Positions 22,858 through 38,520 are shown, counted from the first letter of the stretch. The stretch is DNA of 64,000 nt from a virus (IMGVR_UViG_3300031555_002005), one strand, 5' to 3'. The notes: generated by a model from the sequence alone, not told the origin. Translations and numbers: made by a program.

Positions 22858-22983
22858 GACGGTGTAGCTCAGTTGGAAGAGCAATAGCCTTTGTCAGATG
22901 CAGGCTTGCACTAATTCAGTTCGATTCTGAAGTTTGGCACCATAAGCTATGGGTCGAGAGTTCGAGCCTCTCCACCGTCACCA
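22858..22983 (+). tRNA. interrupted tRNA: Lys(TTT) after removal of 50-nt nested insert (alternative register Gln TTG)
   Basis: acceptor gacggtg/caccgtc, D arm, anticodon stem atagc/gctat enclosing cttt+50 nt+taa, T arm gagag-ttcgagc-ctctc, CCA. Confidence 0.75.
22893..22942 (+). ncRNA. nested mini tRNA-like element (acceptor + T arm + ACCA)
   Basis: gtcagat/gtttggc 7-bp helix (3 G-U), ttcag-ttcgatt-ctgaa T arm, ends ACCA. Confidence 0.6.
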
Positions 22984-23450: not shown

Positions 23451-23604
23451 ATCCCAGTAGCTCAGCTGGATAGAGCAACGGTCTTCGGGGAGTTCGTTAA
23501 AAGGTAAGATACTTTAGGATAAAACCTAAGGAGATTACAGTTCGAGTCTGTTGCTCCCCACCATAAACCGTAGGTCGGGGGTTCGAGTCCCTCCTGGGAT
23601 ACCA
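23451..23604 (+). tRNA. interrupted tRNA: Arg(TCT) after removal of 77-nt nested insert (alternative register Arg TCG)
   Basis: acceptor atcccag/ctgggat, anticodon stem acggt/accgt enclosing cttc+77 nt+taa, T arm ggggg-ttcgagt-ccctc, CCA. Confidence 0.75.
23487..23563 (+). ncRNA. nested full-length tRNA-like element with 6-nt 'anticodon' loop
   Basis: ggggagt/gctcccc acceptor, tttagg-ataaaa-cctaag arm, acag-ttcgagt-ctgt T arm, ends ACCA. Confidence 0.6.
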
Positions 23605-25214: not shown

Positions 25215-25700
25215 ATGAATATTGAACAAGTAATTCTTTATAAAAGAATCGAAAAAGTACTTAAGAATTACCTAATAAATGACTTGGGTGATTCACAAAT
25301 GAAGAAAAAGGAAAGCTATTGTTTGAATTGTGGAGTTTCTATACCAAATAGAAATAAATATTGCTCAAACAAATGCCAACTAGATTTCCAATATAAAGAG
25401 TATATACAGAGATGGAAAAATGGGCTTGAAGATGGTATGAGAGGTGAATATCTTATATCAGTACACATTAGAAAATATTTAATGGAAAAGTTTGATAACA
25501 AATGCTCAAAATGTGGATGGGGAGAAATAAATCCTTATACCAAAAATGTACCACTAGAAGTCCATCATAAAGATGGAGATTATACCAATAATTCAGAAGA
25601 CAATCTTGACTTACTATGTCCAAATTGTCACTCATTAACAGAAACATATAAAGCTGCAAATAAAGGCAATGGAAGAAAAGATCGTAAAAAATACACATAA
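25215..25700 (+). CDS. HNH homing endonuclease
   Basis: EVHHKDGDYTNN..LDLLCPNCHSL; start may be internal ATG 25299. Confidence 0.85.
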   Translation: MNIEQVILYKRIEKVLKNYLINDLGDSQMKKKESYCLNCGVSIPNRNKYCSNKCQLDFQYKEYIQRWKNGLEDGMRGEYLISVHIRKYLMEKFDNKCSKCGWGEINPYTKNVPLEVHHKDGDYTNNSEDNLDLLCPNCHSLTETYKAANKGNGRKDRKKYT

Positions 25701-25703
25701 TAT

Positions 25704-25777
25704 GCCCCGATAGTTCAACGGTAAAACGGTGGATTTGTAATCCTCTGTTCTCGGTTCAAGTCCGGGTCGGGGCTCCA
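25704..25777 (+). tRNA. tRNA-Thr (TGT)
   Basis: acceptor gccccga/tcggggc, loop ttTGTaa (one anticodon-stem mismatch), CCA. Confidence 0.8.
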
Positions 25778-25914
25778 TATTAAAAGCACAAGTGGATAAG
25801 TACTTTATAGTCAACTGACTAGTCATGTCACGAAAGGTAAGACGAGTTTGCACAAAAATGGCCATGGACATTTAGTGATGAATCCGCAAATCTACGAAAC
25901 GGAGGATATTGCCT

Positions 25915-25962
25915 ATGATTGTTTGTAGTGAATCCAGTGTGGGGGACACCCCACCCGCTTAG
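25915..25962 (+). CDS. conserved 15-codon uORF, copy 1 (MIVCSESSVGDTPPA)
   Basis: GGAGGA 7 nt upstream; TAG stop sits in loop of hairpin cccac/gtggg; paralog at 30959. Confidence 0.4.
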   Translation: MIVCSESSVGDTPPA

Positions 25963-26017
25963 TAGTGGGTTTCGCCGTTCCCACCAAAAACGGCGAACTT
26001 AATTAAGAGGTAATAAA

Positions 26018-26200
26018 ATGTGTAAACACCAAAACGGAAGTATATCAAGTATGTTTGGCATTCCAGTAGATCCTTGTGTGTACAAGGATATTGAAGCATA
26101 CAAGAATGTAACAGTAATTGTTAGCAAATGTATTCACTGTGGTGCTATTAATATCAGTTGGAAGCGTCAGGAAGATACTGAAGAAATTGAAGTTGAGTAA
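26018..26200 (+). CDS. zinc-ribbon small protein (60 aa)
   Basis: RBS AGAGG; Cys pairs. Confidence 0.6.
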   Translation: MCKHQNGSISSMFGIPVDPCVYKDIEAYKNVTVIVSKCIHCGAINISWKRQEDTEEIEVE

Positions 26201-26208
26201 TTAAATAT

Positions 26209-26299
26209 GGGGAATTGGCCGAGTGGTCGAAGGCAGCTGACTTGAAATCAGTAGACGGTGCTGAGCCGTCCGTGGGTTCGAATCCTACATTCCCCGCCA
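26209..26299 (+). tRNA. tRNA-Ser (TGA), class II
   Basis: acceptor ggggaat/attcccc, loop ctTGAaa, long variable arm, G73, CCA. Confidence 0.9.
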
Positions 26300-26344
26300 C
26301 AAAATGGGCTTACGGCTTCACCCAACCAAAGAAGCCGACGATAT

Positions 26345-27322: not shown

Positions 27323-27922
27323 TTGACATTGGCGAAACATGTAACTACAGAAGAAATAGCAACAAGAATAAAAAATACTTTTAAACAAAATGTTTCATTA
27401 GTTGGAGAATATAAGAATAAACGATCAAAATTAACATTACATTGTAATGATTGTGGACATGAATGGGAATCTCCATCAAGTAGTGTTATATATGGAGATA
27501 GACACGAGTGTCCTCGGTGTGGAAGACATGCAAAACAATTGAATGAATTTCAATGTACAAACTGTGGACAAGTTGTGTATCGTAAAGATTCAGACATTAA
27601 AAAGAATCAAACAGGTAATTTCTTTTGTTCTCAACAATGTGGAAATGAGTTTAAAAATCGAATACGAAAAGAAAGTGGAGAATGGGATAACTCGTTAAGC
27701 TATAGACGGAAAGCATTTGAAACTTATGAACATTTATGTTGTGTATGCGGTTGGAATGAAGATGAAAGAATTTTAGAAGTTCATCATAAAGATGAAGATC
27801 GTACAAACAATATGGTAAATAATCTATGTATTCTATGTCCTACATGTCATAGAAAAATAACATTAGGATATTATGAATTAACAGATGATTTCAAGCTAGT
27901 TGATAAAAATCAAAAGAATTAA
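27323..27922 (+). CDS. HNH homing endonuclease with zinc ribbons
   Basis: EVHHKDEDRTNN..CILCPTCHRKI; several CxxC pairs. Confidence 0.85.
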   Translation: MTLAKHVTTEEIATRIKNTFKQNVSLVGEYKNKRSKLTLHCNDCGHEWESPSSSVIYGDRHECPRCGRHAKQLNEFQCTNCGQVVYRKDSDIKKNQTGNFFCSQQCGNEFKNRIRKESGEWDNSLSYRRKAFETYEHLCCVCGWNEDERILEVHHKDEDRTNNMVNNLCILCPTCHRKITLGYYELTDDFKLVDKNQKN

Positions 27923-28212: not shown

Positions 28213-28240
28213 TTGACAAATCAGAATTATATGATATAAT
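28213..28240 (+). promoter_or_regulatory. sigma70-type promoter for the ACAGCAA RNA array
   Basis: ccccTTGACAaat-N16-TATAAT. Confidence 0.8.
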
Positions 28241-28257
28241 ACAAGCAGTTCAAGGGA

Positions 28258-28275: not shown

Positions 28276-28369
28276 AGGCGCACACAGCAAATTTACTATA
28301 TGGTTAAAATTTTTTATGTTTGTGTTAAAAAATGAGAAGGTTCAAATCCTTTAAAAATTTCATGCGCCT
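28276..28369 (+). ncRNA. ACAGCAA-module RNA unit A
   Basis: outer helix aggcgca/tgcgcct, 5' bulge cACAGCaa (28284..28290), inner helix aaattt/aaattt, cargo with T-arm-like aagg-ttcaaat-cctt. Confidence 0.55.
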
Positions 28370-28379
28370 TGACAAAAAA

Positions 28380-28442
28380 AGACACTAACAGCAACTTTAT
28401 TAACTATACAATTTGGGCTTGTAAATATTGTTAATAGTGTCT
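28380..28442 (+). ncRNA. ACAGCAA-module RNA unit B
   Basis: outer helix agacact/agtgtct, bulge aACAGCAA (28388..28394), inner helix attaac/gttaat. Confidence 0.55.
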
Positions 28443-28449
28443 TGAATAT

Positions 28450-28561
28450 GGGAACGTCCGGTGGCAGTAAATAAGTGCATGGAGTGGGCAGCACACACAG
28501 CAATTTTACTTAACAATTTCTGGAAAAAATTGACTCCTTGGTTCAACTCCGAGGGTTCCCA
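28450..28561 (+). ncRNA. tRNA-like RNA with permuted ACAGCAA module (unit C)
   Basis: acceptor-like gggaac/gttccc, T arm cttgg-ttcaact-ccgag; hairpin gtgc-N12-gcac + ACAGCAA (28497..28503); agtaaa/tttact. Confidence 0.5.
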
Positions 28562-28582
28562 AAAATCCCACTAACTTAATAT

Positions 28583-28712
28583 GCGGAAGTAGCTCAGCTG
28601 GGAGAGCAATAGTATTTATTTAAAAATGTGTTTAGATTAACACTAACAGCAATTTTTATTTAAAGAAGAAGTTGGGGACTATGGGTCGTAGGTTCGAGCC
28701 CTACCTTCCGCA
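28583..28712 (+). tRNA. tRNA-like gene with permuted ACAGCAA module in anticodon loop (unit D; anticodon unassigned)
   Basis: acceptor gcggaag/cttccgc, D and T arms canonical, stem atagt/actat encloses 64 nt: taaaaa-[gtgtt-tagatt-aacac]-tAACAGCAA-ttttta. Confidence 0.6.
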
Positions 28713-28724
28713 TCAACTAAATAT

Positions 28725-28852
28725 GCCAGAGTAGCTCAGTTGGTAGAGCACGTATATATCAACCAACGTGGTATGAAAATTTCACGCACAGCAATTTTAA
28801 TGATTCTTGCCTTTTAAGCACGTTGTCGTGGGTTCGAGTCCCATCTCTGGCA
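28725..28852 (+). tRNA. tRNA-like gene with ACAGCAA module (unit E; anticodon unassigned)
   Basis: acceptor gccagag/ctctggc, D/T arms canonical; insert has hairpin cgtg-N12-cacg + cACAGCAA (28788..28794); flanked by direct repeat agcacgt. Confidence 0.55.
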
Positions 28853-28862
28853 AACTTTATAT

Positions 28863-28981
28863 GGCGCAATGGTGTAATGGTAGCACAACGTAATAATTGA
28901 GGTTTGTTAAAATCTTAAACTGCAATTTTACAATGCATGATCACGCCGTAGGTTGAAGTTCGATTCTTCATTGCGTCTCCA
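28863..28981 (+). tRNA. tRNA-like gene with variant module ACTGCAA (unit F; anticodon unassigned)
   Basis: acceptor ggcgcaa/ttgcgtc, T arm tgaag-ttcgatt-cttca, CCA; hairpin gttt-N11-aaac + TGCAATTTTA. Confidence 0.5.
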
Positions 28982-28998
28982 AATTAACAATTAAATAA

Positions 28999-29118
28999 AG
29001 GCACATACAGCAATTTTAAATTCTGAAGCAGCCATTTTGCTTTGTAGTATAACTGGTTAGTACGCAGGACTGATAATCCTGAAATGCTGGTTCGAGTCCA
29101 GTCTTTAAAAATGTGCCT
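28999..29118 (+). ncRNA. ACAGCAA-module RNA unit G carrying an internal tRNA-like domain
   Basis: outer aggcacat/atgtgcct, bulge ACAGCAA (29007..29013), inner ttttaaa/tttaaaa; cargo has arm cagga-ctGATaa-tcctg and T arm ctgg-ttcgagt-ccag. Confidence 0.6.
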
Positions 29119-29129
29119 TGCAATTAAAA

Positions 29130-29235
29130 GAGAGACGAACAGCAAATTGATTGAATTAAAGAAGATAGAAAACTTATTTACTAATTATTGTTGTTTTATT
29201 TATGTATTAGATTATTTATCACTTTTAAGTCTCTC
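29130..29235 (+). ncRNA. ACAGCAA-module RNA unit H
   Basis: outer gagagac/gtctctc, bulge gAACAGCAA (29139..29145), AT-rich cargo. Confidence 0.5.
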
Positions 29236-29353: not shown

Positions 29354-30907
29354 ATGGAATTTATGAGTGCAGTTAGACAGACTCTCAATAATGAGTACAA
29401 TGTGTCTATCACTGAGAACGGCGCAGTTGGTTATAGAACCACTGGCAAGGAGCTGCTTGACCTGAACTTTGCAGTAGCATCTCTTCGTAAGATGACCGAT
29501 GCAGAAGTCGCAAAGAGATTCAAGAAGGCTTTTTGTGAAGATCAGGTTCTCGCAATGAAGTGGCTGTTCTACGCAAGAGACGTTCGTGGTGGTTTGGGTG
29601 AGCGTAGACTGTTCAGAGTTGTTCTGGCAGATCTGGTACAGTCCAATCCTGAAATGGTTATTCCTGTCATGAATCTGATTCCTGAGTATGGTCGCTACGA
29701 TGACCTGTGGTGTCTGTTAGATGACAAGGAAGCAGCTAATGTGATTTATCAGATTGTTGATAATCAGCTGAAGCGTGACTGGGAAAACATGGCTTCAAAG
29801 AAGCCTATTTCTATTCTGGCAAAGTGGATGCCTTCTATCAATGCATCTTCTGCTAAGACCAAGGAATACGGAAAGAAGCTGTGCAAGGCTCTGAAGATGA
29901 CTGAGCGTGAATACCGCAAGGCTCTGAGCAAGCTTCGTGCATATCTGGATGTTGTTGAAGTTAAGATGTCCGATAAGAACTGGTCTGCAATTAAGTATGA
30001 AGCAGTTCCTTCTCGTGCAAATCTGATTTACAACAGCGCATTCCTGAGAAATGACGAAGCAAGACGTAGAGAATATCTTGGCCAGCTTGAAAAGGGCGAG
30101 ACTAAGATTAACGCATCTACTCTGTTCCCTCACGATATTGCTCATAAGTATACTAACAACTCATGGGGTCGTGGTCTAAAGGCAAAGGATGCAACCATTG
30201 AAGCTCTGTGGAAGGCGCTACCTGACACTGTAAATGGCTGTGGTAATACTATTGTTGTTGCTGACGGCTCTGGTAGTATGACTTGCACTGTTGACAATCA
30301 CTCTCGTGTTACTGCACTTGAAGTTGCAAACGCACTGGCAATTTACTTTGCTGAGCACTCTTCTGGTCAGTTCAAGGATAAGTACATTACTTTCTCTGAA
30401 AGACCTCAGTTTGTTGACTTCAGCAATTGTAAGACTCTGCATGACAAGCTACACACTGCACTAATGCATAATGAAGTTGCAAATACTAACATCGAAAAGG
30501 TGTTTGATTTGATTCTGACTTCTGCGGTCAATAACCATATGCATCAGGAAGATCTTCCTCAGAACATCCTGATCATCTCTGATATGGAGTTTGATAGCTG
30601 TGCAACTTCTGGCAATGTTGATCGTTGGAGCTACCGTAACAGACCTACTCAGAAGCTATTCGATGTTATCGCTCAGAAGTACGCAAGAGCAGGTTACAAG
30701 ATGCCTCGTCTGGTATTCTGGAATGTAAACTCTCGCACTGGTACTATTCCTGTAAAGGAAAATGACCTTGGTGTGGCACTGGTCAGCGGTTTCTCTGTAA
30801 ACGTTGCCAAGATGGTCATGAGTGGCAAGACTGATCCTTTCGAGTGTCTGCTTGAAACTCTGAACTCTGAGAGATATGCTCCTGTTGAGGAAGCTTTAAA
30901 TCAGTAA
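29354..30907 (+). CDS. DUF2828 / TROVE(Ro60)-like protein with C-terminal vWA domain
   Basis: N-terminal ITENGAVGYRTTGKELLDLNF signature as I recall for DUF2828; MIDAS-like VVADGSGSM; strong RBS AGGAGG. Confidence 0.75.
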   Translation: MEFMSAVRQTLNNEYNVSITENGAVGYRTTGKELLDLNFAVASLRKMTDAEVAKRFKKAFCEDQVLAMKWLFYARDVRGGLGERRLFRVVLADLVQSNPEMVIPVMNLIPEYGRYDDLWCLLDDKEAANVIYQIVDNQLKRDWENMASKKPISILAKWMPSINASSAKTKEYGKKLCKALKMTEREYRKALSKLRAYLDVVEVKMSDKNWSAIKYEAVPSRANLIYNSAFLRNDEARRREYLGQLEKGETKINASTLFPHDIAHKYTNNSWGRGLKAKDATIEALWKALPDTVNGCGNTIVVADGSGSMTCTVDNHSRVTALEVANALAIYFAEHSSGQFKDKYITFSERPQFVDFSNCKTLHDKLHTALMHNEVANTNIEKVFDLILTSAVNNHMHQEDLPQNILIISDMEFDSCATSGNVDRWSYRNRPTQKLFDVIAQKYARAGYKMPRLVFWNVNSRTGTIPVKENDLGVALVSGFSVNVAKMVMSGKTDPFECLLETLNSERYAPVEEALNQ

Positions 30908-30958
30908 ACTGGTACACGCAAGTGTCTTGTTTAAATAATCCAAAGGAGGACTTTGCCT

Positions 30959-31006
30959 ATGATTGTATCAGCTAATTCCAACTTGGAGGATTGTCCACCA
31001 GCTTAG
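30959..31006 (+). CDS. conserved 15-codon uORF, copy 2 (MIVSANSNLEDCPPA)
   Basis: GGAGGActTTGCCTATGATTGT shared with copy 1; TAG in loop of hairpin tccacc/ggtgga. Confidence 0.4.
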   Translation: MIVSANSNLEDCPPA

Positions 31007-31041
31007 GTGGAGTCCTGGGTAAGACTTAAAACTGCCCATTC

Positions 31042-31165
31042 AGACATTAACAGCAAACAATAATTACTTGGTTGCGAGGTTAGCTTAGCTGGTCTAAAGC
31101 AATAGATGTGAAAATCTATGATCACTGGTTCGAACCCAGTACCTTGTGTTTAAGTGATAATGTCT
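31042..31165 (+). ncRNA. ACAGCAA-module RNA unit J carrying a tRNA-like domain
   Basis: outer agacatt/aatgtct, bulge aACAGCAA (31049..31056), inner ttactt/aagtga; cargo 31074..31148 cloverleaf-like with 6/8-nt 'anticodon' loop. Confidence 0.6.
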
Positions 31166-33957: not shown

Positions 33958-34049
33958 CCAGCAATGGCGAAAATGGTAAACGCAGTCCGCAGTAGGATTG
34001 CCTGATAGCGCAGTCGGGCATGATAGTTCAAGTCTATCTTGCTGGGCCA
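33958..34049 (+). ncRNA. non-canonical tRNA-like RNA
   Basis: acceptor ccagcaa/ttgctgg+G+CCA, D arm gcg-N11-cgc, T arm gatag-ttcaagt-ctatc; middle is 7-bp hairpin tgcctga/tcgggca with 8-nt loop; direct repeat cgcagtc. Confidence 0.45.
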
Positions 34050-37743: not shown

Positions 37744-38520
37744 ATGACAGAAGAAAGACTGAAATTCATTCAGCCAATTTTAGACACATTTGAGAATGAA
37801 GATATTAAAGAATTTGCAGTTGTTTTGCTTGGCGATTTGCCTGATTATATTTGGCATGTAGGCGCAAGCTCCACTGGCAAATATCACCCAGCATATTCGC
37901 TTGGAGAAATGGGTTTGATGAGACATCAAGTTGCAGTAGTTAGATTTTTAAATTTCTTTTTGGAGTTAGAACAATATAATAGCAAGTTAACAAGCAGAGA
38001 AAGGGATCTTATTAGACTTTCTGGACTTGTGCACGATGGGCGCAAATCAGGATCTCAGGAAGATTATGAAAAGTCCAAGTACACCAGATTTAATCATCCT
38101 ATTCTGATGGCAGACGTAATTAGAAGTTTTGATGGAAAGTATTTAACTCATGAAGAAATTGAAATGGTAGCCGATACCATTAGCAAACATATGGGACAAT
38201 GGAACGAAGACAAAAAAACTGGTGTTGAGCTTCCTAAGCCTAATAATAAGTTTGCCAGAATGGTTCATGTTGCAGACTATCTTGCATCTAGAAAATGCTT
38301 GACTATGGACTTTGATGGATATTTCATGGTGCAAGAAAATGTTGAATTTGATGAGAATTATACACTACCATTCGGTAAGCATTCAGGTAAACGTCTAATT
38401 GATGTGTATAGATCTGCGCCTGACTATATTGCGTGGATGGAAGAAAACATTAAAAAGCCTGATATTTTGAATATGATTAAGGCAATGAAAGAACATTTGA
38501 ATAAGGAGAATAAAGAATGA
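37744..38520 (+). CDS. HD-domain phosphohydrolase with DUF3820-like C-terminus
   Basis: KYHP, GLVHDGRK (HD), C-terminal LPFGKHSGKRLIDV. Confidence 0.75.
   Translation: MTEERLKFIQPILDTFENEDIKEFAVVLLGDLPDYIWHVGASSTGKYHPAYSLGEMGLMRHQVAVVRFLNFFLELEQYNSKLTSRERDLIRLSGLVHDGRKSGSQEDYEKSKYTRFNHPILMADVIRSFDGKYLTHEEIEMVADTISKHMGQWNEDKKTGVELPKPNNKFARMVHVADYLASRKCLTMDFDGYFMVQENVEFDENYTLPFGKHSGKRLIDVYRSAPDYIAWMEENIKKPDILNMIKAMKEHLNKENKE

Follow-up and report, generated by a model that had tools for sequence, protein, structure and literature searches.

The viral DNA analysed here, a stretch of 64,000 nucleotides (nt) of IMGVR_UViG_3300031555_002005 that we call the window, carries two copies of a small element, both on the + strand and both in an island of more than 20 transfer RNA (tRNA) genes. 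Each copy has the same layout: a strong Shine-Dalgarno (SD) sequence, 8 nt, an AUG, a frame of 15 codons (the mini-ORF, for open reading frame), hairpins, and then an H-type pseudoknot. Judged from pairing and covariation, the pseudoknot is the best-supported structure of the element, and its distribution indicates that it is an independent, widespread module. The original prediction, which proposed a translation-coupled attenuator or an arrest peptide, overlooked both this pseudoknot and its wide distribution. We favour, tentatively and without granting it an even chance, the reading that each copy is a translated mini-cistron closed by a boundary or protective pseudoknot, the 3' end of which would be set by RNase P at the next tRNA. 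The two copies, and a third pseudoknot lacking a mini-ORF, are placed as follows.

25901..25906, + strand: SD GGAGGA of copy 1, 8 nt 5' of the AUG, invariant in 25 of 25 family members
25915..25962, + strand: mini-ORF 1, 15 codons, MIVCSESSVGDTPPA, stop codon TAG at 25960-25962
25965..25995, + strand: H-type pseudoknot 1, with stem 1 GUGGG/CCCAC, stem 2 CGCCGUU/AACGGCG, loop 1 UUU and loop 3 CAAA
30945..30950, + strand: SD GGAGGA of copy 2
30959..31006, + strand: mini-ORF 2, 15 codons, MIVSANSNLEDCPPA, stop codon TAG at 31004-31006
31010..31038, + strand: H-type pseudoknot 2, with stem 1 GAGUC/GACUU, stem 2 UGGGUA/UGCCCA, loop 1 C, loop 2 A and loop 3 AAAAC
26305..26337, + strand: third pseudoknot, without mini-ORF, UGGG-CUUA-CGGCUUC-A-CCCA-ACCAAA-GAAGCCG, 5 nt 3' of one tRNA-Ser and 7 nt 5' of the next

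The motif GGAGGA-NN-TTGCCTATGATTGT said to be shared by the two loci is present at both (25901-25922 and 30945-30966, + strand), the second occurrence beginning one nucleotide before the position 30946 first given. These are the only matches in the window at up to 3 mismatches, and none of 100 shuffles of the window contained two, which rules out a duplication by chance. Aligned without gaps over the region between SD and stop, the copies are about 71% identical. The stop precedes the pseudoknot by 2-5 nt in the mini-cistrons, and in mini-ORF 1 a second in-frame TAG (25963-25965) directly follows the first.

The pseudoknots were located with a pseudoknot scanner, the background of which amounts to 10 hits in total, both strands included, over 20 shuffled windows; the pairs were then counted over the family alignments. 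In the family, which falls into a copy-1 and a copy-2 type, the copy-1 type keeps stem 1 paired in 91% and stem 2 in 100%, with the compensatory changes GAG/CUC (in L008), AUGGG/CCCAU (L028) and GGCCGUU/AACGGCC (L001). In the copy-2 type both stems are paired in 100% of the sequences, compensatory changes occur at three of the five pairs of stem 1 (GAGUC/GACUU, GGGUG/CACCU, GAGUG/CACUU, GGUUC/GAACU), and G.U pairs fix the strand. Pseudoknot 2 is a member of the class GUS-C-UGGGYA-N-SAC-NNNAAAC-UGCCC discussed below.

What had been called a terminator-like hairpin is stem 2 of pseudoknot 1. The extra cccac (25980-25984) does lie in the loop of cgccgtt/aacggcg (25973-25979/25989-25995), where it pairs with gtggg; the hairpin is not terminator-like, because no U-tract comes after it. 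The tails following the two elements, AACUUAAUU and AUUCAGAC, are indeed free of a U-tract, the terminator scan returned no terminator-like site in 25600-26300, a further scan showed only a tRNA T-arm, and no sigma-70 promoter was found within either element. The attenuator hypothesis thus loses its footing: there is no intrinsic terminator 3' of the element, and what comes next is usually a tRNA, not a regulated ORF.

Further copies, the search for which had been suggested as a check, exist in related phages and bring the family to 25 distinct members. Twenty-one come from exact-pattern scans for the 22-mer in IMG/VR and metagenomes, and four full-length ones, which have no exact 22-mer, from a profile search; the exact-pattern matches L002, L010, L020, L027, L029-L032 and L034 are chance matches or ordinary gene starts and were left out. 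Wherever a contig offers enough sequence it has one copy of each type (the window, L001, L006, L024, and the contigs with L005 plus L008 and L003 plus L009), and the alignment is nearly gap-free, with no insertion or deletion across the 15 codons. One copy of each type per contig means that the duplication is old and that both paralogues were retained; by these comparisons the two loci are ancient paralogues. Phages in GenBank matched the tRNAs only, not the mini-ORF element. A comparison with Rfam, also suggested as a check, gave no hit on the element within the window at the gathering threshold (preQ1-I/II/III, SAM-II/V, guanidine-III, fluoride, HDV-like, pistol and wcaG included), and returned only tRNAs, the adjacent drum RNA, pistol, GOLLD and a sub-threshold wcaG fragment.

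Is the short frame translated? All 25 members keep SD and AUG, even the four for which the search did not demand the 22-mer. None of the 25 has a stop in frame 0 over the 15 codons; the stops number 36 in frame +1 and 34 in frame +2, several of them belonging to fixed bases (the TGA in ATGA, for example). Over codons 15-17 the counts are 18 stops for frame 0, 2 for frame +1 and none for frame +2; the in-frame stop stands at codon 16 or 17 in 18/25, and the triplet at codon 16 is TAG, TAA or TGA, after differing codons. The remaining 7/25, of the copy-2 type, run for 21-25 codons or more and end inside the pseudoknot (...SWA*, ...CWASL*). Variability at codon positions 1, 2 and 3 is 0.55, 0.90 and 1.18 bits, the third position being the most variable. 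These figures agree with the claim that a short ORF is translated here, and suggest that its translation is probably selected.

The peptide itself is another matter. Positions 4-6, 8-9, 12 and 15 vary freely, and the last residue may be A, V, E, D, N, Y or G. The 15-codon peptides ending in Pro-Pro-Ala-TAG are those of both window copies; in the relatives the final Ala and the place of the stop vary. Pro-Pro occurs in 24/25 and E-[DE]-x-P-P is conserved, but these residues are coded by the helix arms GGAGGA and CCNCC, and in L006b, where Pro14 is lost (Pro-Ile), the helix P-b described below is kept by a compensatory change. We conclude from these alignments that the specific peptide is apparently not under selection and only weakly constrained. 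A gene for a functional 15-residue micropeptide, to which the conserved length, the retention of both paralogues across the clade and some physicochemical conservation (Ile2, Ser7, the acidic pair, Pro-Pro) might point, is for that matter very unlikely: besides the free positions, the C-termini differ and are longer in 7/25, and neither a signal nor a partner gene accompanies the frame. We hold a stalling of the ribosome at termination by Pro-Pro-Ala-stop to be less credible still. The conserved Pro-Pro and E-[DE]-x-P-P could serve an arrest, as could a stable pseudoknot at the ribosome entry site during termination; yet the residue after Pro-Pro varies widely, the same seven members have no stop at codons 16-17, the residues concerned belong to helix arms, L006b has Pro-Ile with its helix compensated, and no ORF with a masked ribosome-binding site (RBS) lies downstream. 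The original idea of a Pro-Pro-Ala-stop arrest is accordingly weak.

The relatives also bring in a known RNA of tRNA islands. In five of them drum RNA (RF02958) lies directly 5' of the copy-1 type and ends about 9 nt before the SD.

5646-5756 of L006: drum RNA
7622-7732 of L008: drum RNA
868-985 of L021: drum RNA
4743-4853 of L023: drum RNA
6539-6648 of L038: drum RNA

The 5' part of the copy-1 flank in these relatives overlaps the 3' end of drum and the remainder comes directly after it; the position of this end, about 9 nt before the SD, therefore explains the conserved AAUCUACG flank. In the window, Rfam detected no drum RNA. This neighbourhood gives some substance to a quite different explanation, by which P1, P-a/P-b (hairpins listed below) and the pseudoknot would form an untranslated noncoding RNA domain of about 100 nt, in some relatives a 3' extension of drum, released by tRNA processing, with GGAGGA and AUG being structural or protein-binding. 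The nucleotide invariance around the AUG beyond coding needs, the coincidence of the conserved "codons" with helices and the compensated loss of Pro14 in one member go in the same direction. However, frame-specific stops (18 versus 2 versus 0, with three triplets) are hard to obtain without translation, no insertion or deletion is seen over 15 codons, P1 is too weak for hiding the start, and bacteria fuse the same pseudoknot to an unquestionably coding micro-ORF, so that we regard a structured, untranslated small RNA as improbable.

Upstream of the pseudoknots, the following hairpins and flanks can be drawn.

25888..25900, + strand: conserved 5' flank AAAUCUACGAAAC of the copy-1 type, from alignments with relatives
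25904..25935, + strand: P1 of copy 1, weak hairpin of about -5 kcal/mol holding the final GGA of the SD and the AUG
25939..25954, + strand: P-a of copy 1, GUGGGG-GACA-CCCCAC
25950..25969, + strand: P-b of copy 1, CCCAC or CCCGC with GUGGG, stop codon in the loop, competing with pseudoknot stem 1
30914..30939, + strand: P0, 5' of copy 2, ACAC-GCAA-GUGU then UUGUUUAAAUAAU
30948..30979, + strand: P1 of copy 2, weak hairpin of about -3 kcal/mol
30984..31000, + strand: P-a of copy 2, UGGAGGA-UUG-UCCACCA, with a central A.A mismatch and an internal SD-like GGAGGA
30994..31011, + strand: P-b of copy 2, UCCACC-AGCUUA-GGUGGA, stop codon at the loop, excluding P-a and overlapping pseudoknot stem 1 by 2 nt

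P1, which contains the AUG and the last three SD bases, has -1 to -6 kcal/mol across the family; in copy 1 its outer pairs are 100% kept with one-sided changes only, and its inner part is not conserved. P-a is a pairing of GGAGG-like with CCNCC, perfect and with a 4-base loop (GACA or GAAA) in most copy-1-type members, where it shows the compensatory variants UGGAG/CUCCA, GGAGGA/UCCUCC and CGGAG/CUCCG in three registers; in the copy-2 type it is 71% paired, the central position being unpaired in 10/12. P-b is weakly supported in the copy-1 type (83% paired, one covarying pair), and covaries in the copy-2 type (CCACC/GGUGG, CCCCC/GGGGG, CCGC/GCGG, CCAAU/AUUGG). The stem of P0 changes in relatives while its pairing is kept (CACAC/GUGUG, CGUAC/GUACG, GUAC/GUAC).

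Two structural claims made earlier are borne out here: the stop codon lies in a hairpin loop whose stems differ between the copies and yet pair (cccac 25950-25954/gtggg 25965-25969 against tccacc 30994-30999/ggtgga 31006-31011), and copy 1 has the alternative pairing gtgggg 25939-25944/ccccac 25949-25954. The mutually exclusive pairings over the end of the ORF are likewise present, P-a being opposed to P-b and to pseudoknot stem 1. From there a translation-sensing switch, a broader form of the original idea that does without a terminator, may be imagined, in which the progress or pausing of the ribosome (on Pro-Pro, on the internal SD-like GGAGGA or on phage-tRNA codons) would pick P-a, P-b or the pseudoknot and would thereby adjust how the tRNA or ORF downstream is processed, stabilised or transcribed by read-through according to translational capacity. 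The chain of exclusive pairings (GGAGGA:UCCNCC versus UCCACC:GGUGGA versus GUGGG:CCCAC), the covariation of column 81 of the copy-1-type alignment with columns 74 and 100, the stop in or beside a hairpin loop and the location in a tRNA island all fit such a switch, as do the 7/25 ORFs ending within the pseudoknot, which every ribosome must then melt. On the other hand no terminator or sequestered RBS is available as output, the single-stranded leader before the tRNA is identical in both folds, the copy-1 type gives P-b weak support, the copy-2 type allows P-b to form together with the pseudoknot core, and no regulatory codon is enriched besides Pro-Pro, itself a helix arm. We consider a switch of this kind unlikely, though worth keeping in mind.

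The pseudoknot extends far beyond this phage clade. Viral sequences were scanned with the pattern CTGGGNANNACNNNAAACTGCCC, and the viral counts given here refer to the 108 distinct matches among the matches listed. In 107 of them the three bases just upstream, which the pattern leaves unspecified, read GU and then a base complementary to the one in the loop (C paired with G in 85, G with C in 22). The loop 2 base is U in 74, A in 19, C in 11 and G in 4, and the first three positions of loop 3 vary. These 108 sites have no mini-ORF. Where a long same-strand ORF lies upstream, its stop is 6-8 nt before the pseudoknot in 38/65 and never 0-4 nt, TAA being the stop in 44/65. When the first paired base is about 6 nt after the A-site codon, it stands approximately where the mRNA enters the ribosome, at the helicase site. 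The upstream genes are diverse (Hsp20, secreted hydrolases, RNA-dependent RNA polymerases (RdRps) of tombus-like RNA viruses), and the annotated carriers comprise a microvirus and Nostoc, Moorella, Corynebacterium and Latilactobacillus phages, three of them cultured phages: Nostoc NMeng1, Moorella MTATph1 and Corynebacterium phi673. Single instances are the pseudoknots after the RdRp ORF in the tombus-like RNA-virus contigs L125, L136 and L139 (IMG/VR) and after a microvirus peptidase gene (OM869566.1, 5801-5831).

Such a position after the stop is typical of recoding stimulators, so that the pseudoknot might be thought to favour read-through, frameshifting or hopping at the stop. We give this hardly any credit: TAA is the commonest stop, a slippery heptamer is lacking, two stops stand in a row in copy 1, a tRNA comes next, and no read-through frame follows the stops of the viral ORFs, the in-frame extension (median 13 codons) being no longer than in the other frames (14 and 9).

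The second positional rule concerns tRNAs. Among the same matches, 8/108 have a tRNA that begins 3-12 nt downstream and not one has a tRNA beginning at 16-100 nt, for a chance expectation that we estimate ourselves, from the tRNA density in those loci, at about 0.1. Nostoc phage NMeng1 has the arrangement of pseudoknot then tRNA too, with its pseudoknot at about 37841-37866, and in the phage clade of the window 12 members have a tRNA beginning 4-9 nt past the pseudoknot. By comparison the spacing to the next ORF start is loose, with no fixed distance, and the neighbouring genes are diverse.

Bacterial genomes hold the module as well, across many phyla. Among the matches listed from the genome scan, at least 81 cases unite the pseudoknot with a small ORF that is preceded by a strong SD, MKRFMIPRVAHCSEGC... 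or MDITIRYMLRPVAHCKEGCS...SWARR*. This conserved, Cys-containing micro-ORF of 16-27 amino acids (aa), joined at its 3' end to a GUC-CUGGGCA...AAACUGCCC pseudoknot, shows a classic synonymous variation at third positions. Its stop falls at -8, -2, +10 or +16 relative to the pseudoknot start, and its frame is always the same; the phage copy-2 ORF shares the -8 stop position and this very frame (S-W-[A/V] through the pseudoknot). A short translated frame combined with this pseudoknot is therefore a recurrent design. The genomes and metagenome-assembled genomes concerned are L160-L279 (e.g. L170 3300-3410, L176 4830-4920); several loci directly precede genes for an Rrf2 regulator and a hybrid cluster protein, to which superoxide reductase is added in two. 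No model of Pfam or NCBIfam matches the micro-ORF, no model of Rfam 15 covers the pseudoknot class, and the E. coli genomes gave no match to the pseudoknot. Counted by sequence matches, the class is larger than 200 pseudoknots, spread over double-stranded DNA phages, a microvirus, RNA-virus contigs and many bacterial phyla. Neither the mini-ORF element nor the pseudoknot class was found described in Rfam 15 or in the literature searched, an unnamed entry in a large candidate catalogue (e.g. PMC10690425) being possible.

The explanation that we tentatively favour for the window copies is the following. A mini-cistron with a strong RBS would sit in the tRNA array, its 15-codon frame being translated and the sequence of its peptide of little importance. 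The pseudoknot would mark the 3' end of translated frames, as near to the stop as the terminating ribosome allows, unless the short frame itself enters it. Cutting by RNase P at the downstream tRNA would leave a 3' end just beyond the pseudoknot, which may then protect the upstream RNA against 3' exonucleases and insulate the translated segment from the tRNA. Finally a ribosome on the mini-ORF would open P1, P-a and P-b, and could thereby time the docking of the G-rich strand into the hairpin loop.

Several observations sit badly with this explanation. Copy 1 of the window and L008 are followed by an ORF or by AT-rich DNA, not by a tRNA; many pseudoknot-only sites lie within operons; and the pseudoknot-only module between two tRNA-Ser genes (26305-26337) is unaccounted for. 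A protected 3' trailer there would hinder the upstream tRNA, which encodes its CCA, from maturing. Nor does the explanation cover the near-invariant UUGCCUAUGAUUGU at the AUG. The conserved peptide positions overlap RNA helices, so that coding and structural constraints are confounded, and the 21 members found by the 22-mer are biased for SD and AUG.

Instead of a protected 3' end, the strong SD might serve the 5' end: as in stabilisers of the STAB-SD or stalled-ribosome type, SD and AUG would recruit a ribosome that blocks 5'-to-3' decay by RNase J, the short frame only ending translation before the tRNA. A very strong SD, a poorly constrained peptide and selected in-frame stops would suit this role, and so would the host, likely a Firmicute judging from the best match of DnaE (Clostridium phage Amboise, 47% identity; Alicyclobacillus and Brevibacillus phages come next). 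But tRNAs do not need such protection, and the pseudoknot with its fixed stop spacing in unrelated phages is left unexplained; we estimate that this 5' role has a low probability.

A broader proposal, decidedly more speculative than that for the window copies and in our opinion doubtful, would unite both pseudoknot types in one unnamed, widespread RNA class acting at the interface of translation termination and RNA 3' ends. Its members would fold against the terminating ribosome and, with RNase P at an adjacent tRNA, would yield exonuclease-resistant 3' ends independent of terminators, as a prokaryotic and viral counterpart of MALAT1/mascRNA, the phage mini-ORF version coupling them to ribosome traffic within tRNA arrays.

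The surroundings of the copies differ. Copy 1 lies between a tRNA-Thr and an ORF of 60 aa that sits where most relatives carry a tRNA, and copy 2 between a 517-aa DUF2828/DUF7788 gene and a tRNA-like gene.

26018..26200, + strand: 60-aa ORF with its own SD, 22 nt after pseudoknot 1, belonging to no Pfam family
31073..31149, + strand: tRNA-like gene with an abnormal anticodon loop (6-bp stem, 6-nt loop), 34 nt after pseudoknot 2, then tRNA-Met and tRNA-Leu

The SD of ORF 26018 is free, 11 nt past pseudoknot 1. In relatives (L011 4540-4800, L012, L015 4525-4830) the DUF2828/DUF7788 gene is followed by another conserved RNA-like stretch, UUGAGUAGUGAGUACA..., with a T-arm-like hairpin, which may be a Y-RNA-like partner; in the window (gene at 29354-30907) the copy-2 element holds that downstream slot. 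The idea of a Y RNA suggested by the DUF2828 neighbour is not relevant to the element, relatives carrying a different RNA there.

The island has other peculiarities. ARAGORN reports "tRNA-???" genes with abnormal anticodon loops at 23487-23563, 31073-31149 and 33958-34049, and full-length tRNAs of Rfam span 123-151 nt at 22858-22980, 23451-23601, 28583-28712 and 28725-28852, with inserts of 50-80 nt that may resemble introns or be inserted elements. Six exact copies of the motif ACAGCAAWTT, always on the + strand, stand in 28284-29148 of the window (0/100 shuffles reach 6), with looser copies near 28393, 28932, 29265 and 31048; several copies are within long insertions of tRNA genes. ORFs for HNH endonucleases (25215-25700 and 27323-27922) are found among the tRNAs, as is a textbook TTGACA-17-TATAAT promoter at about 28213-28245. 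In relatives a pistol ribozyme comes 3 nt after a tRNA (L025 1743-1812), and a GOLLD fragment was found (L009 1-145).

Phage tRNA islands are known to hold enigmatic RNAs such as drum, GOLLD and ribozymes, and the present element enlarges this set by a probably translated mini-cistron capped with a pseudoknot. The larger class stands out by a near-perfect covariation of stem 1 and by its two sharply defined positions, 6-8 nt after a stop and 3-12 nt before a tRNA. If it does define 3' ends or form a ribosome-linked switch, it would offer a testable mechanism for ending and stabilising transcripts without terminators in compact genomes, and a handle for stabilising synthetic transcripts.

Compared with known RNAs, the element shares its neighbourhood with drum RNA, GOLLD and pistol, but has itself no similarity to drum. 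The copy-1 pseudoknot hairpin resembles positions 57-84 of the wcaG model (RF01761; GGUUUC-stem-UUCC...CAAA.A-stem) in the window and in L009, both being phage or marine associated; membership is rejected, the score being 15-19 bits against a gathering score of 42, with the rest of wcaG absent. HDV-like (hepatitis delta virus) or theta ribozymes have a nested double pseudoknot, a P3 hairpin between P2 and P1, and a cleavage at the 5' end directly after a tRNA (PMC10879173). Here only 0-1 nt separate the 5' strand of stem 2 from the 3' strand of stem 1, and the element lies upstream of tRNAs, so that this assignment was discarded. Pistol, transfer-messenger RNA and a gene-60-like hop each fail a defining feature. 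A ligand-binding pseudoknot riboswitch was likewise set aside: loop 2 accepts any base, the start of loop 3 is variable, and downstream there is no consistent gene class or fixed spacing.

With the leader-peptide attenuators (trp, his, pheA) the likeness is a short frame with a strong SD overlapping alternative pairings that a ribosome would remodel; here, by contrast, no terminator with a U-tract is present, the neighbour downstream is in most cases a tRNA gene and a pseudoknot forms the last structure, while the only candidate for a run of regulatory codons in the mini-ORF is Pro-Pro, lost in L006b and placed on a helix arm. Arrest peptides such as SecM, TnaC, the Erm leaders or RAPP unmask a downstream RBS, whereas in this clade a tRNA lies 4-9 nt downstream in 12 members and the SD of ORF 26018 is free. 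The STAB-SD and ermC-type stabilisers of Firmicutes also have a strong SD, in some cases accompanied by a short frame, and a bound ribosome that affects RNA stability instead of making a useful protein, but they act at mRNA 5' ends and have no pseudoknot. Recoding pseudoknots (read-through in murine leukaemia virus, -1 frameshifting in retroviruses and luteoviruses) are similarly compact and H-type, with a loop 1 of 1-3 nt, an A-rich loop 3 and a position 5-8 nt after the A-site codon; the present ones have no slippery site and no extended product, prefer TAA and occur also between tRNAs. For the 3' end, the comparison is with MALAT1 and MEN-beta, in which an A-rich, triplex-capable structure is found just 5' of an RNase P site on a tRNA or tRNA-like fold (mascRNA is cut off by RNase P), an arrangement that in the phages would give a protected 3' end formed without terminator. 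Those RNAs are eukaryotic and nuclear, with an ENE-type triple helix and a genomic A-tract, whereas the phage structure is a 30-nt H-type pseudoknot beside real tRNA genes; in the sequence, a tRNA or tRNA-like fold does start a few nucleotides after the putatively protective structure.

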